Origin: an uncultured Gammaproteobacteria bacterium
GTDB taxonomy: Bacteria; Patescibacteriota; Patescibacteriia; Magasanikbacterales; GWA2-37-8
NCBI GenBank assembly: GCA_964444635.1
Contig: CAYUIA010000001.1
Span: forward strand, 1 to 41,983
Length of the DNA: 41,983 bases
Reading direction: 5' to 3'
Shown here: in pieces, positions 12,135 to 41,700 of the stretch
Layout of the letters: the number at the start of each line of letters is the position of its first letter
Numbering within the stretch: the first letter of the stretch is position 1
Made by a program: the position numbers and the translations under genes
The notes under the pieces: model-generated
What the model was told of the DNA's origin: nothing
The model's database searches: none
The model's input: only the letters and a program-made list of their open reading frames with translations

Positions 12135-12207
12135 ATTATTCAATATTCAGTATTCAATATTTATGTTTAAAACAAAAAAATATTGGATATTGAATATTAA
12201 ATATTAA
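12135..12207. repeat. AT-rich heptad-word palindrome (attcaat / attgaat)
   Basis: Left arm tattattcaatattcagtattcaatattt, right arm aaatattggatattgaatattaaatatta, which are approximate reverse complements. The right arm overlaps the stop codon of the 12204 gene. Confidence 0.65.
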
Positions 12208-12644
12208 TTATTGTTTATTGAGGAAGTTGTAGAAGAGACAATGTTGAGAGTGCTCGTTAACATCAAACCGATAGTGTTTGTATTGATCGTAGGTGTGCCG
12301 GTTGTAGTGCTGACAATTTGTTGTAAAAATCCAGAAACTTGTTTTTTAATATCGGAAATATCCTTTTCTTTTTCTTGTTTTTCAAAAGACTCGGTCCATT
12401 TTTGCTCGGCTGTATTTTTTATGTCTAGTGTAGCTTTATCCCAGTTGAAAGCGTTGATCTGTAGTTGAGTGGTGTAGGCAAAAAAAACAACAAGCCCGAC
12501 AGTAATAGAGCCGACACCAAACCATAATAGTTTTTTGGCTGAATCTTTGGAATTTTGGTGTTCAAAAAAAGTGACGAATTTTTCCAAATCCTCCGAAGAT
12601 TTTTTTTCCGCTTCTTCTTTTAGGGCGCCTTTTTTCTTAGGCAT
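12204..12644 (-). CDS. Hypothetical single-pass membrane protein
   Basis: 146 aa. One TM segment (LLWFGVGSITVGLVVFFAY). 3 nt downstream of the preceding gene (apparent coupling). T/S/N-rich C-terminus. Confidence 0.6.
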   Translation of the reverse strand: MPKKKGALKEEAEKKSSEDLEKFVTFFEHQNSKDSAKKLLWFGVGSITVGLVVFFAYTTQLQINAFNWDKATLDIKNTAEQKWTESFEKQEKEKDISDIKKQVSGFLQQIVSTTTGTPTINTNTIGLMLTSTLNIVSSTTSSINNN

Positions 12645-12647
12645 AAA

Positions 12648-13268
12648 CTAGTAATTTTTTTCTAAGACAAAAATTTTGGTGTCTTCTTGCGGTAAATCTT
12701 TTTTCTTGATGATAATTTTTTTCTCCGTAATTTCAGGTTTGAGCCCGATTTCTTTGAGAAAACTTTCTACGGGCAGGGCTTTGGGATCGGTATCACATTG
12801 GTAAGCTATCGGGATGATAACACGAGGTTCTAATATGGAAACAGCTTCGCGAGCTTTTTTGGGATCAAGAGACTTTTCTCCGTTGCCGACCGGTAAAAAA
12901 AGAATATCAGGAGTGCCGAGTTTTTCTATGATATGTTCGGAAATTTTTTCTTTGACATTGCCCAGATGGACAATATTCATGCCTTCGGCGGAAATTTTGA
13001 AAATCATCTCTTGGTCATTGGCGGCCAATGCATAGATCATATTGTCTTTGACTTCATATTCGCCAAGTGTTTCTATGATAAAAGCGGAATCGGAAATGGT
13101 GACCGAATCTTTGGCGGTTTTACTATATAAGACTACGTCTGGAGAAAAATTACGGGGAAAATCACCTTTTTCCGGTTTATAAGGATCAATAATAATCACG
13201 ATATCCTCATCTTTGAGATTTTTGGTTTGCAGTTTGACACAAGTTTGTCCGAGCCAGTTGATATGCAT
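12648..13268 (-). CDS. Metallo-beta-lactamase-fold protein (UlaG/Lactamase_B_3-like) with a degenerate metal-binding motif
   Basis: N-terminus MHINWLGQTCVKLQ...VIIIDPY is typical of the family. The expected HxHxDH block reads DVVLYSKTAKDS. Confidence 0.6.
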   Translation of the reverse strand: MHINWLGQTCVKLQTKNLKDEDIVIIIDPYKPEKGDFPRNFSPDVVLYSKTAKDSVTISDSAFIIETLGEYEVKDNMIYALAANDQEMIFKISAEGMNIVHLGNVKEKISEHIIEKLGTPDILFLPVGNGEKSLDPKKAREAVSILEPRVIIPIAYQCDTDPKALPVESFLKEIGLKPEITEKKIIIKKKDLPQEDTKIFVLEKNY

Positions 13269-13365
13269 AAAATATATGATTAAATAACGCCTTTATTTTA
13301 TCATAATTCATACACCTCCGCAAGGGGTAAAATGTGGGTAAAAAATGGCTAAAATTAGCCAACTC

Positions 13366-13394
13366 TTGACAAGTTTGGATGGTCTGTGTATAAT
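13366..13394 (+). promoter_or_regulatory. Consensus sigma70-type promoter of rpsA
   Basis: TTGACA, 17 nt, TATAAT. Roughly 100 nt leader to the rpsA ATG. Confidence 0.7.
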
Positions 13395-13497
13395 ACTTCA
13401 AAATTCAATTAAACAAGTTAATCCAATTTAGAGATTAACACTCTGTCTGCAAATAAAAAAAGCAGAAGGGATAAGAGAATTTTTTTGTTTTTATTAT

Positions 13498-14688
13498 ATG
13501 TCAAACAAAGATTTTAAGACGCTTTTGGCAGAAAATCTGACGATTTTCCCGAAAGTTGGAGATATCGTCAAAGGAAAAATTCTTTCCGTTGATAAAGGAG
13601 AAGTGCGTATCGATGTAGAAGGTGTTACTACCGCCATTGTTCGTGGTGCGGAGATGTTTGCCGAATCTCAAGAATACGCCAATTTAAAACCCGGGGACGA
13701 AGTAGAGGGGACCGTCATTGATTTGGAAAACGAAAACGGTGAAATGGAGCTTTCTTTCAAAGTTGCCGGCATGCAACGTGTTTGGGATAATCTACGCAAA
13801 TGGATGAAAGAAGGCATTACCATCAAAGCCAAAGTTTTGGCTGCCAATAAAGGCGGTATCATGATGCAAGTCGGCGCTATCGCCGGTTTCATGCCGGTAT
13901 CTCAGCTCAATCCGGATCATTATCCGCGAGTAATGGGCGGAGATAAAAATAGAATTTTGGAAAAACTTCAAGAGCTCATTGGTAAAGATTTGGAAGTTAA
14001 AGTAATTGATGTTGATGAAAATGATGAAAAACTCATTGTTTCTGAAAAAAGCGTTTGGGATGATGCTCAAAAAGCGGTTTTAGAGGCTTATAAAGTCGGC
14101 GATACGGTTGACGGTGAAGTTTCCGCTCTCACTTCTTTTGGTGCTTTCATCAAATTTGGTCAAGGACTGGAAGGTCTTATTCATATTTCTGAAATTGCTT
14201 GGCAACGTATTGATCATCCAAAAGATTTGCTCAAAGTTGGAGATAGAGTTCAAGCTCAGATCATCCAACTTGATCATTCCAAAATCTATCTTTCCATGAA
14301 ACGCTTGATTGAAGATCCTTGGAAATTGGTAAAAGATAAATATAAAATTGGTGATACAGTAAAAGGTAAAATTTTGAAAATTGAACCGTTTGGTTTGATG
14401 ATCGGTTTGGACAAAGATATCCATGGTTTGGCCCATGTTTCTGAATTGTCCGATGAGCCGATTGCTAACATCCAAAGTAAATTCCAAATCGGTACGGAAA
14501 TGGATTTTACTGTTGTCTCTCTAGAACCAACCGAACATCGTCTCGGTTTGCGCGTAGCCGGAGTTAAAGGCAAAGCTAAAAAGGAAGAAAAAGCTGACAA
14601 AGAGGAAAAATCTGAGAAAAAAGCGAAAAAAGAAAAGAAAGAAAAAGAGGAAGTGAAAGAGGAGAAATTGGAAGAGACAAAAGAATAA
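13498..14688 (+). CDS. rpsA: 30S ribosomal protein S1 (four S1 domains) with a K/E-rich tail
   Basis: Four repeats of the S1 OB-fold pattern (GD.V.G.V......G..V....G..G..H.SE). The C-terminal ~45 aa are KE-rich. Confidence 0.9.
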   Translation: MSNKDFKTLLAENLTIFPKVGDIVKGKILSVDKGEVRIDVEGVTTAIVRGAEMFAESQEYANLKPGDEVEGTVIDLENENGEMELSFKVAGMQRVWDNLRKWMKEGITIKAKVLAANKGGIMMQVGAIAGFMPVSQLNPDHYPRVMGGDKNRILEKLQELIGKDLEVKVIDVDENDEKLIVSEKSVWDDAQKAVLEAYKVGDTVDGEVSALTSFGAFIKFGQGLEGLIHISEIAWQRIDHPKDLLKVGDRVQAQIIQLDHSKIYLSMKRLIEDPWKLVKDKYKIGDTVKGKILKIEPFGLMIGLDKDIHGLAHVSELSDEPIANIQSKFQIGTEMDFTVVSLEPTEHRLGLRVAGVKGKAKKEEKADKEEKSEKKAKKEKKEKEEVKEEKLEETKE

Positions 14689-14700
14689 TCTGATTAAATA

Positions 14701-14727
14701 AAAAACCGCCTGAAAGGGCGGTTTTTT
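14701..14727 (+). terminator. rpsA terminator
   Basis: CCGCCT-GAAA-GGGCGG (GNRA tetraloop) followed by T6. Confidence 0.8.
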
Positions 14728-14771
14728 GGTAGTTAGTATTAAGTATGGAAACTGTAAATATGTCATCCCTG
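14714..14771 (+). repeat. 58-nt block shared with 16915-16986 (terminator 3' half, TAGT heptads, then gtcatccctg)
   Basis: aagggcggttttttggtagttagtattaagtatggaaactgtaaatatgtcatccctg. Identical to the ftsH-downstream copy except that copy carries a 14-nt tandem duplication. Confidence 0.85.
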
Positions 14772-14901
14772 TATTATGTTCGTCCGTAGCTTTAGCGAAG
14801 CCTAGGGCTTGCCGGGTGTAGCTTTAACGAAGCCCGGTTGATTTTTTCCCATATTTATTATATTATTAAAATACTCTAAATTATTATAAAAACTTTTATT
14901 T

Positions 14902-16728
14902 ATGAAAGATTTTTTCAAAAATTTCATTATTATTTTTTGTTGTTTGTTGGTTGTAGCCGCGGTTTTGAGTATTTTCCAACAAGATGAAAACAAAAAACCG
15001 GAAACTATCGGGATAGGTCGTTTGATTGAGCAGATAAATCAAGGTCAGGTTAAAAAAGTGGTGGTAGAAGGAAATTTGCTCAAGATAGATCTCAAGGATG
15101 AAAATGCCAGACCGCAAGAAGTAAAAAAAGAAGCCGGAGAATCCTTTGGTGATATTTTGAAAAATTACAGTGTCAGTGAAGAAGCCAAAGCCGGTTTGGA
15201 AGTGGAAATCAAAGATGAAAGCTCGGTCAAATTTTGGGCGATAAATTTTATTTTACCGATATTATTGCCATTGCTTATCATCATCGGATTCTTTTATTTT
15301 ATGAGTCGCGGGGTGCAGGGGGTAAATAATAAAGCTATGGGCTTTGGTCAGAGTAGCGCTCGCATGGTAAATCCGCGTGATAAAAATCGTAAAACATTTG
15401 CGGATGTTGCCGGAGCCGGTGAAGCCAAAGAAGAGTTACAAGAAATAGTGGAATTCTTAAAAAGTCCAAAAAAGTTTTCCGATATGGGTGCCAAAATTCC
15501 CAAAGGTGTGCTTTTGATGGGAGCCCCGGGTACCGGTAAAACATTATTGGCTAAATCAGTGGCTGGTGAAGCCAATGTGCCGTTTTTCCATATGTCAGGA
15601 TCTGAGTTTGTAGAGATGTTTGTAGGGGTAGGAGCCTCTCGAGTGCGTGATTTATTTGCCAAAGCCAAAAAAGCTGCTCCAGCTATTGTATTTATCGATG
15701 AGATTGATGCTGTGGGTCGTCGTCGCGGGACAGGTCTTGGTGGAGGACATGATGAACGTGAACAAACACTAAATCAAATTTTAGTGGAAATGGACGGTTT
15801 TGAACCAAACAGCGGTGTTATTGTAATGGCTGCTACCAATCGTCCGGATGTTTTGGATCCGGCGCTACTTCGTCCGGGCCGTTTTGATCGTCGTGTAGTT
15901 TTGAATATGCCTGACATCAAAGATAGAGAAGAAATTCTCAAAATTCATGCTAAAAACAAACCTCTCATCAAAGATGTTTCTTTGCGTAAAGTTGCCGAAC
16001 GCACTCCTGGATTTTCCGGAGCAGATTTGGAAAGCTTGTTAAACGAAGCGGCTATTTTGACTGTGCGTCGTAATCTCAAAAAAATTACAGAAACAGAAAT
16101 CTTGGAAAGTATTGAAAAAGTAATGCTTGGACCGGAACGCAAAAGTAGGGTGATAAGCGATAAAGACAAAAAGATGACCGCTTATCACGAAGCCGGACAT
16201 GCTATTGTCGGTCATTCTTTGTCAAATTGTGATCCGGTTAGAAAGGTTTCTATCATTTCTCGCGGACAAGCCGGAGGATATACGCTCAAGATGCCGACTG
16301 AGGATAAACATTATTATACTCTGGCGCAGTTTAAAGATGAACTCGCGATGACTTTGGGTGGTTATGTAGTAGAAAAGATGATCTATGGTGAAGATCAGAT
16401 TTCAACCGGTCCTTCATCGGATTTGAAAAATGCCACCAAAGTGGCTAAAGACATGGTAACTCGTTATGGCATGAGTGAACTTGGTCCGCGAACGTTTGGT
16501 GAAAGAGAAGAGATGATATTCTTGGGTAAAGAAATTCATGAGCAACAAGATTACAGTGACAAGACTGCCGAAAAAATAGATGAAGAAGTTATCAAAATTA
16601 TAAATGAAGCGCAAAATAAAGCGCGAGAGATTTTGGAAAGCAAAAGAGATAAATTGGAAGAAATGGTTGCCGTGCTTTTGGAAAAAGAAACAATTGAACA
16701 AGAAGAGATAAAAGATATTTTGGGATAA
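14902..16728 (+). CDS. ftsH: ATP-dependent zinc metalloprotease FtsH
   Basis: Two TM segments, Walker A GAPGTGKT, an SRH region and the HEAGHA zinc site. Confidence 0.97.
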
Positions 16729-16770
16729 GCTAGTAAGCAGTAAAGCTGTAAAGCAATAAAGCAAACAAAT

Positions 16771-16899
16771 GTCATTGCGAGGATTCGCCTCCGCCAGTTG
16801 GCGGGTGGCGGAGACGAAGCAATCCCACGAAGTTCAGTAATCAGTGGGATTGCCACGACCCTTCGGAACGCTAAGCGTCCCTCCGGGTCTCGCAATGAC
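16771..16899. repeat. 129-nt GC-rich multi-hairpin MITE/REP-like element
   Basis: 11-bp terminal inverted repeats GTCATTGCGAG...CTCGCAATGAC. Internal hairpins cgcctccgcc/ggcgggtggcg and gcaatcccac/gtgggattgc. A truncated right-end copy lies at 17543-17575. Confidence 0.75.
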
Positions 16900-16902
16900 A
16901 TT

Positions 16903-16929
16903 AAAATCGCTCGCAAGGGCGGTTTTTTG
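16903..16929 (+). terminator. ftsH terminator, copy 1 of a 27-nt exact duplicate
   Basis: aaaatcgctcgcaagggcggttttttg: stem TCGCTC/GGGCGG, GCAA tetraloop, T-run. Confidence 0.75.
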
Positions 16930-16986
16930 GTAGTTAGTATTAAGTATTTAGTATTAAGTATGGAAACTGTAAATATGTCATCCCTG
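16915..16986 (+). repeat. Second copy of the 58-nt block, with an internal 14-nt tandem duplication
   Basis: Same sequence as 14714-14771, with ttagtattaagtat present twice. Confidence 0.85.
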
Positions 16987-17077
16987 CGAAAGCAGGGATC
17001 CAGGAAAGTTAAAATTATATATTACCACTGGATTCTTCGCGTTTCCCAAAGGGAGGCCTTTGGCCCGCGGGAATGAC
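16977..17077. repeat. 101-nt MITE/REP-like element with GTCATCCC...GGGAATGAC termini
   Basis: Terminal inverted repeats gtcatccc/gggaatgac. Internal hairpins ccctgc-gaaa-gcaggg and atccag...ctggat. Confidence 0.7.
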
Positions 17078-17083
17078 AAAACA

Positions 17084-17110
17084 AAAATCGCTCGCAAGGG
17101 CGGTTTTTTG
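17084..17110 (+). terminator. Copy 2 of the 27-nt terminator sequence
   Basis: Identical to 16903-16929. Confidence 0.75.
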
Positions 17111-17138
17111 TAGTCTGTAGTCTGAAGACCGAAGACTG
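17111..17138 (+). repeat. Heptad array tagtctg-tagtctg-aagaccg-aagactg
   Basis: Four 7-nt units directly after the terminator T-run. 16 nt (tctgtagtctgaagac) recur at 17589-17604. Confidence 0.8.
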
Positions 17139-17143
17139 ATATA

Positions 17144-17173
17144 TTGACAAAACACAAACTTTACTCCTATAAT
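17144..17173 (+). promoter_or_regulatory. Promoter of the 72-aa zinc-ribbon gene
   Basis: TTGACA, 18 nt, TATAAT. Confidence 0.65.
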
Positions 17174-17212
17174 AAATTGTTCTTTATTAAAAACAAATAA
17201 AAGGAGGCAAAC

Positions 17213-17431
17213 ATGGATCTATTGATAGGATTTACAGAAAACAAAATAGATTTGTTTTGCACTCGTTGTCAAAAGAGTACACAACATTTCCGTTTTGAAG
17301 AAGACCCGAGAATTGGCAGGATTGTCTGGACTTGTTCTGTTTGTAAAAAGAAAAAAGCTACCAATATTCAGGAGGTGGAAAGACAAGGTGAGGTGGAAAT
17401 CTTTGATGAAGATGATGAAGAAGAATCTTAA
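17213..17431 (+). CDS. Small zinc-ribbon protein with an acidic tail (orphan)
   Basis: 72 aa. CTRC...CSVC cysteine pairs. SD AAGGAGG 5 nt before the ATG, with its own promoter and terminator. Confidence 0.75.
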   Translation: MDLLIGFTENKIDLFCTRCQKSTQHFRFEEDPRIGRIVWTCSVCKKKKATNIQEVERQGEVEIFDEDDEEES

Positions 17432-17436
17432 ATATA

Positions 17437-17459
17437 AGACCGGCACACCGGTCTTTTTT
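17437..17459 (+). terminator. Terminator of the zinc-ribbon gene
   Basis: AGACCGG-caca-CCGGTCT followed by T5. A weaker second hairpin plus T7 lies at 17479-17505. Confidence 0.8.
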
Positions 17460-17506
17460 AATACAGAAAAAAACAAAACTCGACCAATTATGATCGAGTT
17501 TTTTTG

Positions 17507-17604
17507 TAGTCAGTAGTCTGTAGTCCGAAGTCCAATTTATAACCAGTGGGATTGCTTCGTTTCACTCGCAATGACAGTAGTCCCGTAATCTGTAGTCTGA
17601 AGAC
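17507..17604. repeat. Heptad arrays (tagtcag-tagtctg-tagtccg-aagtcca and ...gtagtct-gaagact) flanking a truncated MITE end
   Basis: Arrays at 17507-17534 and 17577-17604. 17543-17575 (ccagtgggattgcttcg...ctcgcaatgac) matches the right end of the 16771-16899 element. Confidence 0.7.
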
Positions 17605-18770
17605 TATTTTACATTCTTCACCACCACTTTAATCTTATCCGCCGAGCTTGGAGCGGTATCACTCCAAGAAGGGGAGAATTTTACATTAACTCCGGTGACA
17701 TGCGGTAAGCTCACAACATATCTTTCTATTTCACTTTTTTCTTTACCGGCAAAATTGGATTTATCCAAACTTTTGGCTTCGGCATTGAGAGTTACCAGAG
17801 TTTCTTGAGCTACGGTCAAATCGGCTGTTTGTTTTACCAGATCGGTAGAAGCCACAGTGACGACAGGTTCGCCGGAAAAGGAAAGTATTTTTTCAGAATT
17901 ATCATCTATAGATTTGCCTATTTCTTTGTTTAATATTTCTTCCAAATCTTTTTTGGCGAAATAAACCGCGACGAGAGTTGAGGTTCCTGAAAGTGTGAAA
18001 GTGCCGGTTTCTTCACCAGCTTTGTGTGAAGAGGCAGGATTGCTCTCGGTTACGGTGATGATTTTCATATCCGCCCAAAGCTCTGTTTCCCCGATTTGTT
18101 TGAGATAAGCTTGTTTTACTTTTTCTTTATAATCATTTTTGGCGGCCGAAATGTCTGTTTCAGAAACCATACCGATTTTACCGCTACCGCCGCTCATAGG
18201 TTTGGAACTCTCTGCATAAACCACTTTTTGTTTATCTGTAGAAAGTCCGGGAATAGTAAATTTGGTTGGCCCGATATCGCTAGCAGCTCCGTTTTGATCG
18301 GCATAAACTTTGGCGGTTATTTGTCCGCGAGCCGGGATAGTCACCCTATCTTCCAAACGGAAAAGCACATTATCCGGAGAAAGTAGGCGAGTGGTTTTGA
18401 CCAAGATTTGAACTTCGGAAGTATTGTTGTACAGGGTTACTTCGCCTTTGGAAATGCCTTCTACTGTTTTGACACCGGTTGGTGAATAATTTTCGCTCAG
18501 ATAAAATTTGGTGGTGGTGACGATAGCAGCTACTGATTTTTCTCCGCTTTTTTCTTTCATCGCATTTATTGAAATATTGATTGTTTTTTTACTTTCTTTG
18601 GCGATAATGGTAATTTCGGTTTTTTTCAAAGCGGAAAAAATCACAATAGCCAACAATATTACGGTTAATGCCAAAAAGGAGAAAGCAATAACTCGATAAG
18701 TTTTTACCGGCGGTTCATGAGCCGGTTTGGTAGAAAGGCGATGAGCGTACATATTAAAGTTATTTAACAT
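17604..18770 (-). CDS. Hypothetical membrane-anchored extracytoplasmic protein
   Basis: 388 aa. One N-terminal TM segment (VIAFSFLALTVILLAIVIFSAL). The rest is beta-rich, and I recognise no family. Confidence 0.6.
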   Translation of the reverse strand: MLNNFNMYAHRLSTKPAHEPPVKTYRVIAFSFLALTVILLAIVIFSALKKTEITIIAKESKKTINISINAMKEKSGEKSVAAIVTTTKFYLSENYSPTGVKTVEGISKGEVTLYNNTSEVQILVKTTRLLSPDNVLFRLEDRVTIPARGQITAKVYADQNGAASDIGPTKFTIPGLSTDKQKVVYAESSKPMSGGSGKIGMVSETDISAAKNDYKEKVKQAYLKQIGETELWADMKIITVTESNPASSHKAGEETGTFTLSGTSTLVAVYFAKKDLEEILNKEIGKSIDDNSEKILSFSGEPVVTVASTDLVKQTADLTVAQETLVTLNAEAKSLDKSNFAGKEKSEIERYVVSLPHVTGVNVKFSPSWSDTAPSSADKIKVVVKNVK

Positions 18771-18926
18771 TTAAAATTTAATATTTAAAATTACGTACGA
18801 ACTACGAAAGTATACCTGCCCGCCAACGGCCTGGAGCCGTAAGGCGAATGGCAGGCGGGCGAAATTACGAAAATAAATAAATGAATTTATTCTTTAATAT
18901 AGTATACCATTTTTGCAATAAGTTGA

Positions 18927-20630: not shown

Positions 20631-20632
20631 AA

Positions 20633-21598
20633 TTATTTTTGAAAAAGTTTAATAAAAAGATGGCCGATACTGGAAAAAATACCTTTGTGATGCATCTTCA
20701 TAAAAAGATACATCCAAGTACCGGTATTAAAAGCATTGTAAAAACCGCCGATAATGATTATCAAAACCGTGATAGTTAAAATACTCAAAATTATCCCTAG
20801 GTTTAACAAGAAAATACTATTGACCAGTCCGGCCAAGAACCACAGGATAGTAGCCGGAATAAAAGATAAGACAATAACTGTGGAAATCAAAGAGGCTAAT
20901 ACCAAATCCAATAGTAACATTATCAAGCTTATTTCAAAAGAAACCAAAAAGTGATCCTTGAAAAGCAAAGCGCCTTTTTTCAGACTCTCGCCAAAAGATT
21001 TATTATCAATGACTGCGTAGCCAGAAGCGTAGATAGAAACGGCGGTCACAACAAGCATGATAAAAATAGCGATGATAAAAGACAAAATCAGAAAGACCTT
21101 GGTTGGCAGGTTATTGCTTGTTCCCAAAAACCAAACACCGGCGCTAAAAGCGGTCATTAAGATCAAAATTATTTTACGTAATAAATCAAAGCCTAGTATT
21201 TTCCAAAAATATTTGTAACTTTTGTGCCAAGTATCGGATAACTTGGAATGCGTCTTCTTTTTGTAATATTCGCAAGTGTTGATAATGAGCGAAGTTTGAG
21301 CACAAACGGAAACAAAAACTATAATTATGAAAATAGCCAAAATAATCTCAAGTAGCCAAACTGCGGAAACAAAATCAGCCGCCGAGCTGTGAGCGAGTAG
21401 ATTATAAAATCCCATCCAAGGAAAATGACTGAAACGAATAGTTTCGGAACCGGTCAAAAATATTTGTCCGTAAAAACCGCCCAATCCAAAAGGGCTGACA
21501 AAAAGTGCGGCCAAAATACCGAAAATCCAAAAAGATTTATTTTTCCAAACAAGGATAAAAGCGTTTTTTAAAGCTTCGCGATAACTTGGTTCGTACAT
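20633..21598 (-). CDS. Hypothetical polytopic membrane protein, apparently translationally coupled to pilB
   Basis: 321 aa with about 6-7 hydrophobic helices. Its stop codon is 2 nt from the pilB ATG. It does not resemble PilC. Confidence 0.6.
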   Translation of the reverse strand: MYEPSYREALKNAFILVWKNKSFWIFGILAALFVSPFGLGGFYGQIFLTGSETIRFSHFPWMGFYNLLAHSSAADFVSAVWLLEIILAIFIIIVFVSVCAQTSLIINTCEYYKKKTHSKLSDTWHKSYKYFWKILGFDLLRKIILILMTAFSAGVWFLGTSNNLPTKVFLILSFIIAIFIMLVVTAVSIYASGYAVIDNKSFGESLKKGALLFKDHFLVSFEISLIMLLLDLVLASLISTVIVLSFIPATILWFLAGLVNSIFLLNLGIILSILTITVLIIIIGGFYNAFNTGTWMYLFMKMHHKGIFSSIGHLFIKLFQK

Positions 21599-21800
21599 AA
21601 AAGTTATAAGTTAAAAGTTGAAAGTTGAAAGTTCGCCCAATTAATCCCTTAAAATAGTTCGTTTGAGGCAGGTTTTAACTAAGGCAAATAAATCCCAAAA
21701 ACACAAAAAAAGCACATTCTTTTGGAACAATATTATTATAGCATATTTTGGCTAAAATGGGGAAATTTTTCTCGGTTAAATTATCAACATGGGGATTATA

Positions 21801-21829
21801 TTGACAAAAGGTATTTTTTTGGCTAAAAT
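21801..21829 (+). promoter_or_regulatory. Promoter of the 208-aa orphan gene
   Basis: TTGACA, 17 nt, TAAAAT. Confidence 0.6.
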
Positions 21830-21900
21830 AAAATGTCTTTTTTCAAAGATAAGGTTCTTTAAATATTAGATGATTTATTAACGTTTTTTCGGAGGAAAAA

Positions 21901-22527: not shown

Positions 22528-22535
22528 AATACTTT

Positions 22536-22562: not shown

Positions 22563-22581
22563 ATCACTTTTTACATTGTGG

Positions 22582-22609
22582 TTGACTTTTTTTGGGGAAT
22601 TGTTATAAT
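22582..22609 (+). promoter_or_regulatory. Promoter of the thrS leader
   Basis: TTGACT, 16 nt, TATAAT. Confidence 0.65.
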
Positions 22610-22615
22610 TTTGAT

Positions 22616-22764
22616 TGCTAGTCAAAAGAACCAGCCCAGACGTGACAGTGTCATGGTACCACTCTTTGGAGAAACGACAATTTAGAAAAAGTGAAAAATA
22701 CGGGTGGAACCGTCCTAAATTTTTAAGGACCCCGATACCTCTGTTTTTGAGGTGTCGGTTTTTT
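22616..22764 (+). promoter_or_regulatory. T-box riboswitch leader (Thr specifier) controlling thrS
   Basis: T-box motif AAUACGGGUGGAACCGUCC. It folds as the canonical antiterminator GGG-[UGGAACC bulge]-GUCCU-loop-AGGAC-CCC. A terminator follows immediately: CCGAUACCUC-uguuuuu-GAGGUGUCGG plus U6. The specifier context GAGAA-ACG-AC at 22669-22678 matches the GAA-codon-A pattern, and ACG codes for Thr. Confidence 0.75.
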
Positions 22765-22785
22765 ATTTTAAAACATACCAATATA

Positions 22786-22880
22786 CTAATGGTACGAATG
22801 ATACTAATGCTATACTAATACTCAATACGAATATATTCGTATTCCATTCGTATAATTAGTACAATTCGTATATTAGTATA
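22786..22880. repeat. AT-rich word palindrome (tactaat/acgaat words) between the T-box terminator and the thrS ATG
   Basis: Perfect 14-nt palindrome acgaatatattcgt at 22827-22840. It is flanked by tactaat/acgaat words on the left and attagta/attcgt words on the right. Confidence 0.6.
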
Positions 22881-22899
22881 AATTAAATAATATTCACAT

Positions 22900-25812: not shown

Positions 25813-25813
25813 G

Positions 25814-30529: not shown

Positions 30530-31450
30530 ATGAAAAATAAACTTCCAAAATTAATCGTTGTTTGCGGTCCGACCGCCAGCGGTAAAACCGATTTGGCTAT
30601 TGTATTGGCCAAAAAATTTAACGGTGAAATAGTCAATGCCGATTCTCGACAAATTTATAAAGAAATGGATATTGCCACCGCCAAGCCGACTCTGGACTAC
30701 GGACTACAGACTCCCGACTACATTGTTGACGGGATAAATCATTATTTACTTGATATTATAAACCCGGATGAAAATTTTACACTCAGCGATTATAAAGATC
30801 AAGCTCAAAAAACAATTAAAGAAATTATCAAAAAAGGAAAAATTCCTTTTTTGGTCGGTGGAACCGGTCTTTATATCAAAGCGATTGTAGATAATCTGGA
30901 AATCCCGAGAGTTGAACCGGATTTGGTTTTGCGCAGAGAGTTAGAAAGTAAAAGTGCGGAGGAAAGGATCAAAATGCTCAAAGAAATTGATCCGGAAACT
31001 TATGAAAAAATAGATATACAAAATCCGCGCCGGGTTATTCGAGCGCTTGAAGTGGTGCTAAGTACCGGGGAATCGTTTTTGAAACAACAAAAAAAAGGCA
31101 AACCGCTTTACGATGTTTTACAGTTAGGAATAAAAGTTGATAAAGAAAATTTATATGAGCGAATAAATAAGCGTTGTGAAAAAATGATTGAAGCCGGTTT
31201 AGTTCAAGAGGCCAAAAGGTTGGCACAAAAATATTCTTGGGAGTTGCCCAGTATGAGCGGTATCGGTTATAGACAAATGCGCGATTATATCGAGGGTAAG
31301 ATGACTTTGGAGGAGGCGATAGAATGGCTCCAAACAGATACTCGACATTATGCCAAACGACAGATGACTTGGTTTAGGAAAGATGAAAGAATTCATTGGA
31401 TAGAAAACGAGAAACAAGCAGAAAAGAAAATAGACGAATTTTTGAAATAA
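30530..31450 (+). CDS. miaA: tRNA dimethylallyltransferase MiaA with a short in-frame repeat-derived insertion
   Basis: P-loop GPTASGKT, then IVNADSRQIYKEMDIATAKP, LVGGTGLY and the C-terminal RHYAKRQMTWFR. Confidence 0.94.
   Translation: MKNKLPKLIVVCGPTASGKTDLAIVLAKKFNGEIVNADSRQIYKEMDIATAKPTLDYGLQTPDYIVDGINHYLLDIINPDENFTLSDYKDQAQKTIKEIIKKGKIPFLVGGTGLYIKAIVDNLEIPRVEPDLVLRRELESKSAEERIKMLKEIDPETYEKIDIQNPRRVIRALEVVLSTGESFLKQQKKGKPLYDVLQLGIKVDKENLYERINKRCEKMIEAGLVQEAKRLAQKYSWELPSMSGIGYRQMRDYIEGKMTLEEAIEWLQTDTRHYAKRQMTWFRKDERIHWIENEKQAEKKIDEFLK
30692..30712 (-). repeat. tagtc-type heptad repeat inside miaA (opposite orientation)
   Basis: The reverse complement agtctgtagtccgtagtccag matches 19/21 nt of the intergenic agtctgtagtccgaagtccaa at 17515-17535. 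It encodes part of LDYGLQTPDY. Confidence 0.7.
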
Positions 31451-31485: not shown

Positions 31486-31491
31486 TTTATT

Positions 31492-33378: not shown

Positions 33379-33390
33379 AAGAATTTGAAT

Positions 33391-35949: not shown

Positions 35950-36024
35950 GACCGCAGTTTTTTGAAATCCGAAAAAAATTCACAAAATTTGGGATTTGTG
36001 ATTTTGAATTTATTATTTTATTTA

Positions 36025-37161
36025 TTATACCATTTTTTGATAAACCGATAAAGTGGTTTCAGCGGTATTTTTTTGGCTATATTTAGACAAAATATACGGC
36101 ATGTTGTTGATAAGTTTTTGGCGTATGTTTGTATCGGTCAAAATTAGGCTTATTTTTGAACAAATATCTTGTTCAGTTAGAGGATCAAAATACAAAGCTG
36201 CTTCACCTAAAATTTCCGGCAAACAAGCGGAGTTGGTAGAAATTGTTGGTACACCATATTGCATAGCTTCAAGCGGAGGCAAACCAAATCCTTCGTATAA
36301 AGAAGGAAAAACATAAGCGGTTGCATTTTTATAAAACATTGCCAATTCTGCATCAGGCACAAAATCCGTAAAAACAATATTTTGACAATTTTTAAAAATT
36401 TCGGAATTTATCAAGCGATCGTAAAAATAATTTTTTTTGCCAACTAGAACAAGTTGAAAATTTTTATTTTTTTCTTCAAATTTTTTCCAAGATTTCACGA
36501 GCTGTTCCAGGTTTTTATGTGGATAAGCCACCCCTACATAAAGCAGATAAGGCTTTAAAATATGATGCTTTATTAAAAGATTTTCGTTTCCATACTTAAT
36601 ACTTGATACTGGATACTTTATACCCAAATCGGTCGGAGCCAGATGGGTTACGGTGATTTTTTCTTCCGGCATGTGTAGGGTTTTAGTTATATCCTGTTTG
36701 GTAAAGTTACTTGGGGTTATAATTTGCACGGCCTTTTTAACCGCATGGTGTAGGATAAATCTATAAGCGAGATTTTTGAAAAAATATTTGAGCGGTCCCA
36801 AGGTGCTGGATTGGCGACTTGGATAATGAAGTAAAATCAGGTCATGAATAGTTACAATAAATTTTCCGCGATAAAAAAACGGGATATTCCAGTGGGGAAA
36901 ATGGACAAAATCACAATTTTCTTTTTTTAAAATTCTAGGCAGTAAAATTTGCTCTTGCCAGCCATACCATGGAATATCGGCTAAAATCTTTTTAAAACGA
37001 GGATTTTTTGGTTGATATTCTTCAAAATTTTCTTGACGCAAAAAAATCACGTAATCATTGTTTTGGTCGTTTTTTTCTAAACCTGTTATGAGTTGTTGTA
37101 AATAGCGCCCCAGACCACCCTGTTTTGGGCCGTATAGGCGCGCATCTATCCCTATTTTCAT
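36025..37161 (-). CDS. Glycosyltransferase family 4 (GT-B, Glycos_transf_1)
   Basis: FPSLYEGFGLPPLEAMQYGVPTISTNSACLPEILG (E-x7-E region). Contains the in-frame 35-nt heptad element. Confidence 0.88.
   Translation of the reverse strand: MKIGIDARLYGPKQGGLGRYLQQLITGLEKNDQNNDYVIFLRQENFEEYQPKNPRFKKILADIPWYGWQEQILLPRILKKENCDFVHFPHWNIPFFYRGKFIVTIHDLILLHYPSRQSSTLGPLKYFFKNLAYRFILHHAVKKAVQIITPSNFTKQDITKTLHMPEEKITVTHLAPTDLGIKYPVSSIKYGNENLLIKHHILKPYLLYVGVAYPHKNLEQLVKSWKKFEEKNKNFQLVLVGKKNYFYDRLINSEIFKNCQNIVFTDFVPDAELAMFYKNATAYVFPSLYEGFGLPPLEAMQYGVPTISTNSACLPEILGEAALYFDPLTEQDICSKISLILTDTNIRQKLINNMPYILSKYSQKNTAETTLSVYQKMV
36590..36624 (-). repeat. 35-nt, five-heptad (GTATNNN) element in frame inside the GT4 CDS
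   Basis: The reverse complement ggtataaagtatccagtatcaagtattaagtatgg encodes GIKYPVSSIKYG. Together with the next 4 nt it matches gtattaagtatggaaac of the intergenic blocks at 14740-14756 and 16955-16971. Confidence 0.8.
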
Positions 37162-37230
37162 ATTATTTTAAGTATAATGCAAATCTTTAGTTAAGCCAAG
37201 TTTCTCCCCAAATTGATTGATTGGGTAAAT

Positions 37231-37259
37231 TTGACAAACAAAAAAAAGAGGGATAAAAT
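37231..37259 (+). promoter_or_regulatory. Promoter of the 76-aa zinc-ribbon gene
   Basis: TTGACA, 17 nt, TAAAAT. It lies inside the longer ORF-track call that starts at 37213. Confidence 0.6.
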
Positions 37260-37311
37260 AGTTTCTTCTTGTTCTTTCGACAAATCATCCAACCTGTTTT
37301 TGGAGGCGCCA

Positions 37312-37542
37312 ATGACCAAACCTCTTTTGAAGAAAAAGGAAAATGAAGAAATTGATCGTATTTGCGGTCAATGCAGCGGTAAAGAAAAAAACCTAGTTCC
37401 CCATGTGGCTTATTATGCTATGTGTGTGGGGACATTATGGAGGAAAATGAACTGCAAAACATGCGGAAGCATTTCTCAAGAGCCAGTCAGTAGTAAAGAG
37501 GAAGATAAGGTGATGAAAGATTTTGTCATAAAAGAAATGTAG
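37312..37542 (+). CDS. Orphan 76-aa zinc-ribbon protein (start moved to the ATG preceded by an SD)
   Basis: GGAGG 5 nt before the ATG at 37312 (MTKPLL...). CGQC...CKTCG cysteine pairs. Has its own terminator. Confidence 0.7.
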   Translation: MTKPLLKKKENEEIDRICGQCSGKEKNLVPHVAYYAMCVGTLWRKMNCKTCGSISQEPVSSKEEDKVMKDFVIKEM

Positions 37543-37566
37543 TCTCGAAGACTACAAAACATAACC

Positions 37567-37598
37567 AAGACCCTTTTTAAGGGTCTTCTTTTATTTTA
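37567..37598. terminator. Bidirectional terminator between the zinc-ribbon gene and the convergent GT4
   Basis: aagaccct-tttt-aagggtctt followed by cttttatttt. Confidence 0.7.
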
Positions 37599-38706: not shown

Positions 38707-38713
38707 AAATTGA

Positions 38714-38754
38714 GGTATTAAGTATCAGGTATTATGTATTAAGTATGTAAACTG
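38714..38754 (+). repeat. Intergenic full-length copy of the 35-nt GTATNNN heptad element
   Basis: ggtattaagtatcaggtattatgtattaagtatgt followed by aaactg. 29/35 identical to the GT4 coding copy, with the same 35-nt length. Confidence 0.8.
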
Positions 38755-38767
38755 ATGCTGAATAACC

Positions 38768-38828
38768 TTTATTGTTTATTGATTATTGTTTATTGTGTGG
38801 AGTATTTTTAATAAACAATAAATAATAA
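38768..38828. repeat. Heptad-word palindrome (ttattgt / acaataa)
   Basis: tttattgtttattgattattgtttattg ... aataaacaataaataataa. A 13-bp perfect stem is possible (tttattgtttatt / aataaacaataaa). Confidence 0.65.
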
Positions 38829-38867
38829 TTTAATAATAAAACCCAGTATTTAATATTTTTCAGAGCG

Positions 38868-39986
38868 TTAAAATAATTTATTTTGAACGAGGCCGGCTTT
38901 AAACTCCTCATACTTATTCTCCACAAACTTTTTCATCTTTTCTTTAAAAATTTCTTCACTAAATTTTTCCGCATGTGTGCGAATTTTGGCACTATCCCAA
39001 TTTGTCGGATGAAAATTCAAAACAGCGTCAAACAGACTTTCCCAGGTTTGTTTTTTGAAAAAAATACCGGTTTCGCCATCAATAACCGTTTCCTGAGCTC
39101 CGCCCGCGCTATATGCTATTACCGGTCTGCCGGCAGCCATACTTTCTATCGCGGTAATACCGAAGTCCTCTAATTGCGGATTGATAAAAGCTAGTGCTTT
39201 ATTCATCAAATCTATTTTTTGTTCCTCGGTGATGCGCCCTAAAAATTGTATATTTGGTTTGGCGATTTTTTTCAAATATTTCAATTCCGGTCCGTCGCCA
39301 AATATTTTTAAAGGTAATCCCAGGCGATTAAAAACTTTGATAACCAAATCAATTTTTTTATAAGGCACCAATCTGCCTCCGCAAAGATAATAATCACCAA
39401 GAGTTGGAGAAATTTTGAATTTTTCCGTTTCTACCGGCGGGTTAATGATAATTGCCTCACGACGATAAAATTTTTGAATGCGTTTGGCGACAGTAAAAGA
39501 ATTGGCGATAAATTCATCTACACGGTCGGCGCTCATCTTATCCCAAAGACGCAAACGATGAATAAAATTGGGAGAAAAAAGTTTTATAAAAAAATTATAA
39601 CGAAAATCATCCAGATATTTATGAGTATCTGACCAAAGAAAACGCGGGGGAGTGTGGCAATAAGAAATATGCAGAGTGGACGGCGGTGTTATCACGCCTT
39701 TGGCAAAAAGAGAAGTGCTGGAAATGACGATATCAAAGTTTTTTAGATCGTGTTTTTCCGTGGCTATTGGCATGAAAGGCAGATACCATTGATAGCGAGA
39801 ATGAATAAAAGGAAAATTTTTCAAAAAACTTTCTTTAACTTGCTCTTTTTTGAATTGGTCCAGTTTTTTTTCATCATGAAATAAAACAAAAATTGGCGCC
39901 TCCGGCCAAATTTGGTGGAGGGACCATAAAACTTTTTCCGCCCCTCCATCTTGCGCTAAATAATCATGGACTAATGCGATGTTCAT
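38868..39986 (-). CDS. Glycosyltransferase family 4
   Basis: NPQLEDFGITAIESMAAGRPVIAYSAGGAQETV. 372 aa. Confidence 0.85.
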   Translation of the reverse strand: MNIALVHDYLAQDGGAEKVLWSLHQIWPEAPIFVLFHDEKKLDQFKKEQVKESFLKNFPFIHSRYQWYLPFMPIATEKHDLKNFDIVISSTSLFAKGVITPPSTLHISYCHTPPRFLWSDTHKYLDDFRYNFFIKLFSPNFIHRLRLWDKMSADRVDEFIANSFTVAKRIQKFYRREAIIINPPVETEKFKISPTLGDYYLCGGRLVPYKKIDLVIKVFNRLGLPLKIFGDGPELKYLKKIAKPNIQFLGRITEEQKIDLMNKALAFINPQLEDFGITAIESMAAGRPVIAYSAGGAQETVIDGETGIFFKKQTWESLFDAVLNFHPTNWDSAKIRTHAEKFSEEIFKEKMKKFVENKYEEFKAGLVQNKLF

Positions 39987-39995
39987 AAAATATTA

Positions 39996-40116
39996 TAATC
40001 CGAATACTACAAATTATTATCCGAATTCCCCAAATTACCGCGACATCCGAATTATTGTTATTCGGGTGAATCACTTTTTATTCGGAGCATTCGGATAAAT
40101 TCGTAGATTCGGATTA
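39996..40116. repeat. Word palindrome: three copies of atccgaat followed by four or five copies of attcgg(a)
   Basis: atccgaat at 39998, 40019 and 40045. Inverse attcgg at 40060, 40080, 40089 and 40107, plus attcgt at 40099. Confidence 0.65.
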
Positions 40117-40127
40117 TATTTTTAATT

Positions 40128-41546
40128 TTATTTTGCTCCTTTACGACTTAACACCACAAAAGGAGTTTTTATTAAGATAATCAAATCAAGCAACAATCTC
40201 CAGTTTTCAATATAAAAGGTATCCAGTTTGATTTCGTCTTCAAAACTCAGGTCACTACGTCCGGAAATTTGTGCCAGACCGGTAATGCCTGGTTTGATAG
40301 CCAAAACTATTTTGTGATGTTTTTTATATTTTTCCACTTCGCGCGGTTGGTGCGGACGAGGTCCGACTAAGCTCATATTGCCGATAAAAACATTAAAAAA
40401 TTGAGGAAATTCATCCAAACTCCAGCGACGGATAAAACGACCAAAAGGGGTAACACGCGGATCGTTATTGATTTTATAAACAGGTCCGGTTTTGGTATTT
40501 AATTCTTTTATTAACTCTTCTTCTTTTTCTAGAGCTTCTTGACCTTGAGAGCCAAATTGCGCGCCGGTGCAATATTTCTGATACATGGAACGGAATTTGT
40601 AAGTAAAAAATAAAATTCCTTTTTGTCCGACTCTTTCGTTTTTATAAATTATCGGTCGCCCGGTTTCTATGAATATTATCAAAGAAACTATCAGATAAAT
40701 CGGGGAGAAAATTATTATCAAAATCAAACTGCCGACAATATCCAAAATTCTTTTGAAAATTCTGCCCCAGACATTTAATCTGGTTCTACGAAGTTCAATA
40801 ATCGGTATGTCATCAATTGTACTAAGTGAAATGTTGGAGGTAATGGTATCAAGCAGATCGGCGGAATATTTGAAAGACAGATGGTTTTCATTGGCAAAAT
40901 CTATGGCCGATAGCGCCTCTTCTTGATTGGCTTTGGGATCGGCAAAAATAATATCATCAGGTTTGAGAGTTTTTATTTTATTAGCAATTCCTTCGTTAAA
41001 AGTTTCAAAATTACCGACCAGTTTATAACCAAGCATCGGTTGATTATTTATATTTTCCATTAAGCGAAGAGCAATATTTTGAGCTCCTATAATCACGGTT
41101 TTGCGTAAACCAAAACCGCGACTGTATAAAAATATTTTTAGACCGCGAATAATGGCGCGAGCAAAAATCACATAAACAACCGCCAAAATCCATCCCATCA
41201 AAACCAGAAAACGAGAATCAAATTTTTGCAAAGTAAAAAATACATAGATTGTGATACCGGCAAATCCGGTGGCGCAGGCAAAGAAGATGCGATTAATGTC
41301 TTTGAGTAAGCGACGATTGGGATCGGCATGATAAAGTCCGGAAAAAGCAAATATGATTATCCAAACTCCGGCAACCAAAAGAACTATCGGCCAATAAGTG
41401 TGCCAAGTCAGGTCAAACATTATCGGGCGGATACTTTTGATAAATTCGGTATAGCGAAGGCTATAAGCGGAAAATCCGGCCAAAACGATCATAAGATAAT
41501 CAATCGGAAGTTGGAGAAAGGTGAAGAAAAGTTCGAAACGCTTCAT
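40128..41546 (-). CDS. Polyprenyl-phosphate sugar phosphotransferase (WbaP/EpsB-type priming glycosyltransferase)
   Basis: Four or five N-terminal TM segments. C-terminal bacterial sugar transferase domain: KRILDIVGS..., PIIYKNERVGQKG..FTYKFRSM, DEFPQFFNVFIGNMSLVGPRP. Confidence 0.9.
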   Translation of the reverse strand: MKRFELFFTFLQLPIDYLMIVLAGFSAYSLRYTEFIKSIRPIMFDLTWHTYWPIVLLVAGVWIIIFAFSGLYHADPNRRLLKDINRIFFACATGFAGITIYVFFTLQKFDSRFLVLMGWILAVVYVIFARAIIRGLKIFLYSRGFGLRKTVIIGAQNIALRLMENINNQPMLGYKLVGNFETFNEGIANKIKTLKPDDIIFADPKANQEEALSAIDFANENHLSFKYSADLLDTITSNISLSTIDDIPIIELRRTRLNVWGRIFKRILDIVGSLILIIIFSPIYLIVSLIIFIETGRPIIYKNERVGQKGILFFTYKFRSMYQKYCTGAQFGSQGQEALEKEEELIKELNTKTGPVYKINNDPRVTPFGRFIRRWSLDEFPQFFNVFIGNMSLVGPRPHQPREVEKYKKHHKIVLAIKPGITGLAQISGRSDLSFEDEIKLDTFYIENWRLLLDLIILIKTPFVVLSRKGAK

Positions 41547-41624
41547 ACAAAATGAAGAAAAATAAATAAATCAAGTTAATGATATTTTATTACAAAAATC
41601 ACTTAAAGTCAAAGTTTGTTATGT

Positions 41625-41700
41625 AACATGTATCATGTATCATGTATTATGTATGCGAAATGGTTTTATACATAATACATAATACAAACTACATACTACT
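41625..41700. repeat. Heptad-word palindrome (three catgtat units then inverted atacata units)
   Basis: catgtatcatgtatcatgtattatgtat...atacataatacataatacaaactacatac. Confidence 0.65.

Follow-up and report, generated by a model that had tools for sequence, protein, structure and literature searches.

Tandem heptanucleotide arrays in a Candidatus Magasanikbacteria locus and their probable origin by replication slippage in place

The subject of this study is a set of short tandem arrays of 7-nt words (heptads) found in positions 1 to 41,983 of contig CAYUIA010000001.1; this whole stretch of 41,983 nt is referred to as the window. The window has a G+C content of 38% and a cumulative GC skew that climbs almost monotonically. 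Its genes encode RNase III (6714-7520), NusB, FemAB, GyrA, ribosomal protein S1 (rpsA, 13498-14688), FtsH, a type II/IV secretion ATPase, ThrRS, MiaB-like and MiaA enzymes and a DUF4012 protein, as well as Bac_transf and, after it, three GT4 glycosyltransferases. By protein similarity, the host is a member of Candidatus Magasanikbacteria within the Patescibacteria or Candidate Phyla Radiation (CPR): FtsH is nearest to that of L004, a 906-kb contig of a Candidatus Magasanikbacteria metagenome-assembled genome (89% identity, versus 54-76% with other Patescibacteria), and the homologues of Bac_transf carry the same organism name. A cyanobacterial origin, by which the arrays would be short tandemly repeated repetitive (STRR) sequences proper, was rejected: HIP1 is absent from the window, which excludes a cyanobacterial host, and the protein matches are to Magasanikbacteria.

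Loci used for comparison carry the prefix L. The loci L004, L084 and L085 are syntenic with the window at about 80% DNA identity; L164-L174 form a series for the glycosyltransferase operon, with Bac_transf identities of 100, 99, 98, 95, 93, 86 and 85%; L175-L184 are ten contigs of the same species, covering 7-27 kb of the window; and L001-L003 are contigs 100% identical to it. A wider census of Patescibacteria comprised 118 FtsH loci (2.08 Mb), and the dispersal of cassettes was searched for in 184 loci (2.5 Mb of related sequence).

Period-7 arrays in the window

The period-7 pattern is real, specific and well above chance. In the autocorrelation of 5.4 kb of intergenic DNA, compared with dinucleotide shuffles, lags 7, 14 and 21 stand out with z = 6.2, 3.3 and 2.3, respectively; lags 6, 13 and 15 are flat (z 0.4, 0.4 and -0.7), lag 8 is weakly raised (z 2.2) and lags 2-5 are elevated too. 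Defining an array as three or more units with 12 or more matches out of 14, and taking the expectation from dinucleotide shuffles, we find 12 period-7 arrays in 6.4 kb of intergenic DNA, where 0.12 +/- 0.32 would be expected, one array of period 8 and none of periods 5, 6 and 9-14. Coding DNA contributes 4 period-7 arrays in 36 kb (0.3 expected), and Tandem Repeats Finder (TRF) recovers the same arrays. A first-pass annotation, made from the letters of the sequence, had pointed to intergenic heptad arrays and proposed a comparison with shuffled controls, and the excess is indeed there. Its statement that the spacers are built from such arrays goes too far: the arrays occupy about 13% of intergenic bases, and the lag-7 signal is lost once they are masked (z 0.56). 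The signal thus belongs to discrete arrays and is not a general property of spacers, and a pervasive periodicity of all intergenic DNA is rejected. Nor does every spacer use a different word, as had been claimed: GTAGTCY is found 11 times (0.78 expected), and the families GTATTAA/GTATCAT and AATATTG likewise occur at more than one spacer.

The same period prevails in the Patescibacteria census, where period 7 accounts for 130 arrays, period 6 for 33, period 8 for 11 and period 9 for 6. The arrays are unevenly spread: 73 of the 118 loci are without period-7 arrays, some nearer relatives of the window among them, and the richest loci are L123, L031, the window, L106 and L004, with L031 showing the same inverted-array layout in other words.

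Four arrays of the window, all on the + strand, directly follow the T-run of a terminator in the form TTTTTTG(G)TAGT, just as the first reading had it, and are copies of a dispersed terminator-plus-heptad module. At 14722..14746 the T-run of the rpsA terminator is followed by GTAGTTA GTATTAA GTAT (about 2.5 units); at 16923..16961 that of a second terminator copy by GTAGTTA GTATTAA GTATTTA GTATTAA GTAT; at 17104..17138 that of a third copy by GTAGTCT GTAGTCT GAAGACC GAAGACT, a weakly self-complementary arrangement of 2+2 units whose fold is not significant (z -0.6); and at 17500..17604 a T-run leads into GTAGTCA GTAGTCT GTAGTCC GAAGTCC, a fragment of a miniature inverted-repeat transposable element (MITE) and a second copy, GTAATCT GTAGTCT GAAGAC (17585-17604). 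The terminator hairpin itself (cgctcgcaagggcgg plus T-run) occurs in three copies within 2.4 kb, around 16903-17110. Three of the same-species contigs (L175, L179 and L184) align up to 16939 and resume at 17072; the stretch missing between these positions was probably deleted between the terminator copies at 16903 and 17084.

Other arrays stand at the ends and starts of genes. The array AATATTG/AATATTA (about 4 units, 9543..9571) lies at the 3' end of the FemAB gene in a convergent spacer and has no inverted partner; TRF reports it as period 7 x3.9 and as period 14 x2.1 at 100%. The array ATTTAAA/ATTTAAC x4.4 (18761..18792) overlaps the start codon of the gene at 17604-18770, AAAGTT(A/G) x5 (21598..21635) abuts that of the gene at 20633-21598 and is kept in L004, and GTATTAA/GTATCAG x4.6 (38715..38746) abuts the start codon of the glycosyltransferase gene GT2 (38706); all three are unstructured (0 kcal/mol for the second). 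The single period-8 array, AAGCAGTA x3.6 (16735..16763, + strand), is situated just past the ftsH stop codon.

Arrays within coding sequence are found in FemAB (8779..8812, + strand), where GTATAAA GTATCAA GAATCCA GTATTAA GTATGGA encodes GIKYQESSIKYG, in miaA (GGACTAC x4, 30694..30721, + strand; the same word family as GTAGTCC) and further at 8885-8915 and, in GT3, at 36592-36623. At the site of the FemAB array both L004 and L084 carry AATGACC units, which encode KMTNDQFPMTN; the words of this loop thus differ between lineages (GTATNAA in the window), and array turnover rewrites a loop of the protein. In L167 a GTAGTCC array of about 4 units (11677-11708) lies within the called miaA homologue (10906-11871).

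Inverted partners and change between lineages

For six of the 16 window arrays an inverted partner lies no more than 90 nt away (p <= 0.05), and these six make up three pairs (12135/12180, 38767/38810 and 41620/41665). The first pair (12135..12221; partner p 0.02-0.045) consists of TATTCAA x3.6 (12137-12161) and AATATTG x6.1 (12179-12221), which form a hairpin immediately before the gyrA start codon (12116); it is 99% identical in L004. The second (38767..38830; p 0.01-0.025) consists of TTTATTG x4.1 (38768-38796) and AATAAAC x2.7 (38810-38828), and the third (41620..41699; p 0.005-0.02) of CATGTAT x4.9 and ATACATA x4.6, between divergent promoter-like sites. The layout in which an inverted complement follows a direct array, described as frequent in the first-pass annotation, holds for these pairs and fails for more than half of the arrays, which have no inverted partner and are completely unstructured. 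Of the nine items that it listed as heptads, two are built differently: 22786-22880 belongs to inverted arrays of period 9/18 (ATACTAATG/GTACGAATG, then ATTCGTA/ATTAGTA; 22775..22884, + strand), which form a 100-nt hairpin in the thrS leader, 3' of a terminator, and 39996-40116 belongs to a 135-nt hairpin (39988..40122) that fills the spacer from Bac_transf to GT1 and consists of the 8-mer ATCCGAAT x3 and its complement ATTCGGAT x4, spaced about 21-24 nt.

Folding of the spacers, which had been proposed as a check, separates the two kinds of arrays: unpaired arrays do not fold, and five spacers fold far better than shuffles (z -3.5 to -10.1), namely 12125-12220 (z -4.8), 38755-38840 (z -3.5), 41610-41705 (z -6.6), 22775-22890 (z -7.1) and 39988-40122 (z -10.1, -56 kcal/mol). 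The promoter-like sites that flank the hairpin at 41620-41700 lie at 41612..41584 on the - strand and at 41737..41765 on the + strand, the latter (TTGACA-17-TATGCT) before the RNase P RNA. The hairpin is upstream of both -35 boxes and would hence be transcribed from neither promoter. The RNase P RNA (class A bacterial) is present with its 5' part at 41775-41983 (+ strand); it is cut by the window end, and for this reason its match to Rfam RF00010 (E 2.8e-5) stays below the gathering score. The thrS leader (22582-22770, + strand) comprises a strong promoter-like site, a stretch conserved in L004 (ggtaccac...gggtggaaccgtcc) and an intrinsic terminator at 22732-22758. It resembles an attenuator of the T-box type, a candidate that was not confirmed, with no Rfam match at E <= 0.1.

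Indels were compared among strains that are 97-99.9% identical. Leaving out changes of 1-3 nt, a single deletion of a 32-nt tandem unit and stretches where non-homologous cassettes or recombinant DNA had been forced into alignment, the indels consist of whole units gained or lost inside arrays: two units (+14 nt) at 14747 in L175 and L184, one extra 8-nt unit at 16749 in the period-8 array in L175, L179 and L184, +7 nt at about 38721-38728 in the array 38715..38746 in L169 and L173, and two units (-14 nt) at 38782 in the hairpin 38767..38830 in L169, which are missing from one arm only. The last two changes give the spacer between GT1 and GT2 its alleles of 154, 161 and 168 nt. At the site 17104..17138, L004 holds 1+1 units where the window has 2+2. 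A 32-nt tandem unit at 14790 is polymorphic as well. The arrays are unchanged in independent assemblies from other samples (L001-L003, L176 and L177), and so are not assembly artefacts.

Between lineages the words themselves are replaced at fixed spacers. At 18771 the spacer word is ATTTAAA in the window and AAGTTAT in L084, and L004 has ATATTGG together with its inverse; the thrS leader hairpin of L004 consists of the unrelated words CCAAATC/ATTGGGA. Upstream of Bac_transf, between the divergent promoter-like sites described above, a heptad hairpin is found in 6 of 11 strain or lineage contigs, in three unrelated word families: TATGTAT in the window, L167, L170 and L166; a wholly different cassette with AATCCCA/TTGGTCA arrays in L164, whose protein is 98% identical; and CTCAAAA arrays in L168. 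A MITE takes this place in L169, L172, L173 and L174, and L171 has neither. Significant folds are obtained for nearly all of the cassettes at this site (z -2.2 to -10.6), with a weak fold in the 105-nt cassette of L169 (z -1.8) and none in the 47-nt spacer of L166 (z 0.04). Upstream of rpsA a heptad-like hairpin is present in L084 (z -8.2) and in neither the window nor L004. Two spacers of the glycosyltransferase operon are all but empty in relatives: from Bac_transf to GT1 there are 141 nt in the window and 3, 3 and 4 nt in L168, L171 and L172 (other relatives hold other cassettes), and from GT1 to GT2 161 nt in the window and 8, 2 and 2 nt in L164, L168 and L172. The first-pass annotation had described an architecture that is shared while its sequence is not, and had suggested looking for turnover of words among orthologous spacers; both are borne out. 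Its argument against a single sequence-specific DNA-binding protein stands as well.

The segment 4692-8378 is 93% identical to positions 1-3645 of L084, with its 389-nt tRNA-Lys spacer at 100%, and the rest of the locus is at about 78-80%, which suggests recent exchange between the two lineages.

Other repeats are interspersed with the arrays. MITE-like elements with the ends GTCAT(T/C)CC...GG(A/G)ATGAC are located at 16770-16900, 16975-17078 and 17545-17575 of the window, as well as in L164, L169, L172, L173 and L174; in several strains such an element sits exactly where the window has the 41620-41700 hairpin. In the same-species contig L178, at the position corresponding to about 14720 in the window, a gene for an IS200-like Y1 transposase (144-593; PF01797, E 3.6e-28) stands between the rpsA terminator and a TTGGTAGTTAGTATT array. 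A GC-rich palindrome of about 20 nt, CCTGCCTACCGGCAGGCAGG, is scattered through relatives (L084 at about 3980-4000, 4727-4746 and 11906-11925; L164 at 9877-9892; L168 at 7749-7768; L172 at 811-830) and lies in many cases within heptad arrays; a longer variant is present in the window at 18815-18855, and in L084 the palindrome occurs twice in frame inside FemAB, adding PCLPAGR and ACLPVGR.

Origin of the arrays

We consider it probable that the arrays are simple-sequence repeats with a heptanucleotide unit, which arose where they now stand through slippage of replication on short palindromic seeds and are largely dispensable. Short AT-rich words in non-coding DNA, or occasionally in tolerant coding loops, would be tandemly duplicated by replication slippage that strongly favours a unit of 7 nt. 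Unit-length indels are what the strains display; the choice of 7 would lie in the slippage itself. Where a short inverted-repeat seed is at hand, each arm would expand separately, which would turn the presumptive seed into a direct array plus inverted complement, able to fold as a long AT-rich hairpin or as a cruciform. That the two arms change independently is seen directly. Arrays would then decay by point mutation, lose and gain units and be replaced wholesale by recombination between strains, with the result that each spacer ends with its own word; the turnover of words between lineages at fixed spacers is observed. Effects on expression, be it of an AU-rich unstructured leader ahead of genes without a Shine-Dalgarno sequence, of a hairpin within an operon or of a cruciform between promoters, would be by-products, perhaps occasionally kept by selection, and the gyrA-upstream hairpin is the one candidate for such retention. 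An origin in place is also suggested by the cassettes of the window, which among the 184 loci occur at orthologous positions only. Among the generating mechanisms put forward in the first-pass annotation, slippage is thus favoured by the whole-unit indels, and hairpin-templated repair is not needed, given that the two arms changed copy number independently.

Several observations weigh against this account. The gyrA-upstream hairpin (12117-12203) is identical to L004 at 87 of 89 positions, with flanks at about 80%, and is absent from L084; that it is better kept than its flanks points to purifying selection or to recent transfer of this one element. Most arrays are invariant among the 10 same-species contigs (at least 99.8% identity) and are therefore not hypermutable in the short term. 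About 40-50% of arrays have an inverted partner, a share far above that expected if slippage struck random sites independently. This calls either for abundant palindromic seeds or for some contribution from templated copying or from selection that favours hairpins. The recurrence of a heptad hairpin upstream of Bac_transf in several lineages, with unrelated words, could mean that hairpin structure is selected at this site. The word families GTAGTCY, GTATTAA, TTGGTCA and CTCAAAA recur at several loci and across lineages, which hints at dispersal or at favoured words.

Among the alternatives, the one that survives best would treat the arrays as expression rheostats at the RNA level: paired arms would form a hairpin that is cleaved by RNase III or blocks the start region, and the number of units would tune the downstream gene. 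The long stable hairpins in the glycosyltransferase operon and in the thrS and gyrA leaders, the gene for RNase III in the window, the unit-number alleles in an operon for surface polysaccharide, the conservation of the gyrA-upstream hairpin beyond its flanks and the precedent of a heptamer-repeat hairpin processed by RNase III (PMC12721329) are all in keeping with this idea. Tests for an RNA-level role point the other way. Folding of the five hairpins on both strands reveals no consistent sense-strand advantage from G-U bias (sense better in 2, antisense in 2, equal in 1), and in a four-lineage alignment of the 41620 hairpin, a comparison of low power, none of 32 pairs shows compensatory change and 8 pairs are broken. 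Rfam 15 gave no match to an array spacer at E <= 0.1 in both array-rich stretches, and scans of the whole window used gathering thresholds; only a tRNA and the cut RNase P RNA were returned. The arms vary in copy number independently, the spacers shrink to 2-4 nt in relatives with otherwise the same operon, over half of the arrays lack both a partner arm and a fold, and arrays also lie beside housekeeping genes and outside transcription units, as at 41620-41700. A structural RNA role in processing, stability or termination, as earlier proposed, is thus not supported. For the operon spacers and the gyrA hairpin nothing here favours the rheostat over neutrality, and we regard it as unlikely.

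Somewhat less probable still is the possibility that the hairpin cassettes are tiny non-autonomous mobile elements, similar to MITEs, REPINs or small dispersed repeats (SDR), with heptad arrays as arms and with many coexisting families that would account for the differing words. It stays a live rival because cassettes come and go, MITEs share their sites and an IS200-like transposase adjoins an array. Whole cassettes are present, absent or replaced between strains whose flanking genes are 98-100% identical; the same site is taken by a heptad hairpin or by a MITE with GTCATCC...GGATGAC ends; a CTCAAAA/TTTTGAG cassette occupies the site upstream of Bac_transf in L168 and the GT1-GT2 spacer in L170; the Y1 transposase of L178 and the dispersed CCTGCCTACCGGCAGGCAGG palindrome within arrays of relatives fit as well. 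On the other side, none of the hairpin cassettes of the window occurs at a non-orthologous site anywhere in 2.5 Mb of sequence from related loci. Neither conserved termini nor target-site duplications were found, unit-length indels amount to growth in place, unpaired arrays are without element-like boundaries, and homologous recombination between strains explains the allelic replacement at the polysaccharide locus equally well.

A slightly more doubtful proposal is that heptad hairpins are kept by selection for structure and not for sequence, either as supercoil-buffering cruciforms (between divergent promoters and at gyrA) or as RNase III-dependent rheostats of the polysaccharide operon, with a 7-nt register dictated by the replisome or by a binding protein, through some property specific to the lineage. 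Such selection would explain why a heptad hairpin recurs at one site with unrelated words. If this were true, the 7-nt preference could be tested in genomes of roughly 1 Mb, comparing array-rich with array-free sisters.

We give little credence to the arrays as putative platforms for a protein that reads periodicity, of the S1 or cold-shock (Csp) type with a footprint of about 7 nt on AU-rich leaders, or as cruciforms that absorb negative supercoils arising between divergent promoters and upstream of gyrA. It is true that unpaired, fully unstructured arrays directly adjoin the start codons of genes that have no Shine-Dalgarno sequence, that S1 and Csp have been proposed as binders of TAACTGA repeats (PMC4679880), that an S1 protein is encoded in the window, and that there are AT-rich palindromes at the divergent promoters and in front of gyrA, the latter being conserved. 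Most genes of the window have no Shine-Dalgarno sequence whether or not an array is near, however, and the proposed link between arrays and missing Shine-Dalgarno sequences was rejected; arrays also follow terminators, lie between convergent genes and are dispensable in relatives. Chance, low-complexity AT-rich sequence or an assembly artefact, for which the AT-rich spacers and the elevated lags 2-5 might be cited, is refuted for practical purposes by the autocorrelation, by a 100-fold and period-7-specific excess of arrays over dinucleotide shuffles, and by the strain comparison, with identical arrays in independent assemblies and orthologous arrays in other species.

We note some features around promoters and ribosome-binding sites in the window. 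Two small open reading frames (ORFs) with a CxxC...CxxC pattern (17213-17431 and 37213-37542, both + strand) each have a consensus promoter to themselves; in contrast to most window genes, the first also has a strong ribosome-binding site (GGAGG), and the second runs antisense within the glycosyltransferase operon, at a position conserved across lineages. The palindrome GGCTAAAATTAGCC, with variants such as ggctaaagaaagcc, occurs at 13346-13361, 41700-41720 and other places, and also in L004 and L085. It lies about 5-25 nt upstream of the consensus -35 boxes of several promoters and is possibly an operator or UP-like motif.

Relation to known heptamer repeats

Some better-known classes of repeats can be set aside. 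The window arrays are not CRISPR, as was correctly recognised from the start: identical repeats of about 24-48 nt, alternating with unique spacers of comparable length, are absent, and the units of 7-9 nt stand head to tail. They are not iterons of a replication origin, which would be repeats of 17-22 bp beside an initiator gene or at a switch of GC skew: the skew is near-monotonic, the window has no initiator gene and the words differ per locus. They are not intrinsic terminators either, for which a GC-rich stem and a T-run would be required: the array hairpins are AT-rich without a T-run, and four arrays merely follow ordinary terminators. For annotation this means that such hairpins should not be taken for terminators, riboswitches or CRISPR remnants.

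The hairpins share with repetitive extragenic palindromic (REP) sequences, REPINs and bacterial interspersed mosaic elements (BIME) their intergenic location and an inverted-repeat structure of about 80-140 nt, whereas REPINs are present in many near-identical copies per genome and have no internal 7-nt periodicity (PMC3116915); the window hairpins differ from one another in sequence, and each is single-copy in the loci compared. A Y1 transposase gene of the IS200/RAYT type, which would extend the likeness, was found next to an array in one strain only (L178) and not in the window.

The one experimentally dissected case among heptamer repeats is (ATCTTTC)n in the 5' untranslated region of hmw1A in Haemophilus influenzae, where an upstream hairpin is processed by RNase III and can act as a rheostat (PMC12721329). 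As in the window, a heptamer array serves as a hairpin arm, the number of units varies between strains and the genome encodes RNase III. In contrast, hmw1A is a single locus of 11 or more units with demonstrated phase variation and a non-repetitive G-rich right arm (PMC12721329), while the window has many loci of 3-6 units each that are stable within the species. The GGGAATC arrays of Xanthomonas likewise vary between species and include inverted repeats able to form stem-loops (PMC4692102); they consist of one G-rich word with G-quadruplex potential, and the AT-rich window arrays cannot form G-quadruplexes. The TAACTGA direct repeats of marine Beggiatoaceae (PMC4679880) resemble the window arrays in their 2-6 copies, in their position a few nt upstream of start codons without a canonical ribosome-binding site and in the lack of a functional pattern among the downstream genes, which include housekeeping genes. 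There, unlike in the window, one word dominates the genome and an inverted arrangement is found in 1 of 170 sets (PMC4679880). TAACTGA occurs in the window as 2 single copies and never in tandem, and the known heptamers GGGAATC, GGGGATT, ATCTTTC, TTTTGAT and GATAGAA are never tandem there.

The STRR and other tandem heptamers of heterocystous cyanobacteria (Calothrix, Nostoc/Anabaena) come closer in that several word families coexist in one genome, in that the arrays are intergenic and in many cases no more than 100 nt away from a start codon or promoter (bioRxiv 10.1101/2022.06.06.494920), and in that some form inverted repeats (PMC4692102). The present host is not a cyanobacterium, its words are AT-rich and its arrays are far shorter than the long arrays of Nostoc. 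The word TTGGTCA is in tandem in relatives of the window (L004 at 2708-2721 and 17466-17479, L084 at 3968-3981, L164 at 9897-9910) and is identical as a word to STRR2 of cyanobacteria and to the GACCAAT repeat of Nostoc, which may be coincidence or reflect a word that is generally prone to slippage. None of the STRR words CCCCAGT, TTGGTCA and CAACAGT is in tandem in the window. Elhai et al. in 2008 reportedly described SDR as tiny palindromic insertions inside tandem heptamers of Nostoc, which also co-occur with MITEs, and CCTGCCTACCGGCAGGCAGG may be likened to these.

In many bacteria heptamers form the commonest class among long simple-sequence repeats. The extension of the heptamer phenomenon to the CPR and its small genomes is of use in its own right; our literature searches found no report of heptamer repeats in Patescibacteria. 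A natural series of alleles, from 99.9% to about 80% identity, directly displays whole-unit change, replacement of words at fixed sites and dispensability, and the patchy spread among close Patescibacteria lineages offers a handle for comparing gene content, such as mismatch repair, polymerases, helicases and RNase III.

The closest likeness is to the heptanucleotide repeats of Mrázek, Guo and Shah (2007). According to the summaries in PMC4679880 and PMC4692102, heptamers dominate among long simple-sequence repeats and are sporadically distributed, and a slippage hypothesis based on the polymerase footprint was proposed for such repeats. As far as these summaries go, the repeats consist of tandem 7-nt units far beyond chance, are mostly intergenic, with 7 dominant among units of 5-11 nt, are very sporadic in phylogeny and vary in length and sequence between close relatives, with slippage proposed as their source. 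The window and its relatives show the same excess of 7-nt units, whole-unit changes, dominance of period 7 and sporadic spread. Compared with the repeats so summarised, the window arrays are short (3-6 units) and degenerate, combine many AT-rich words in one genome, are inverted-paired in about 40% of cases and belong to a Patescibacteria lineage with a reduced genome. The arrays therefore belong to a known, if poorly understood, class of heptamer repeats and are not a new kind of element.

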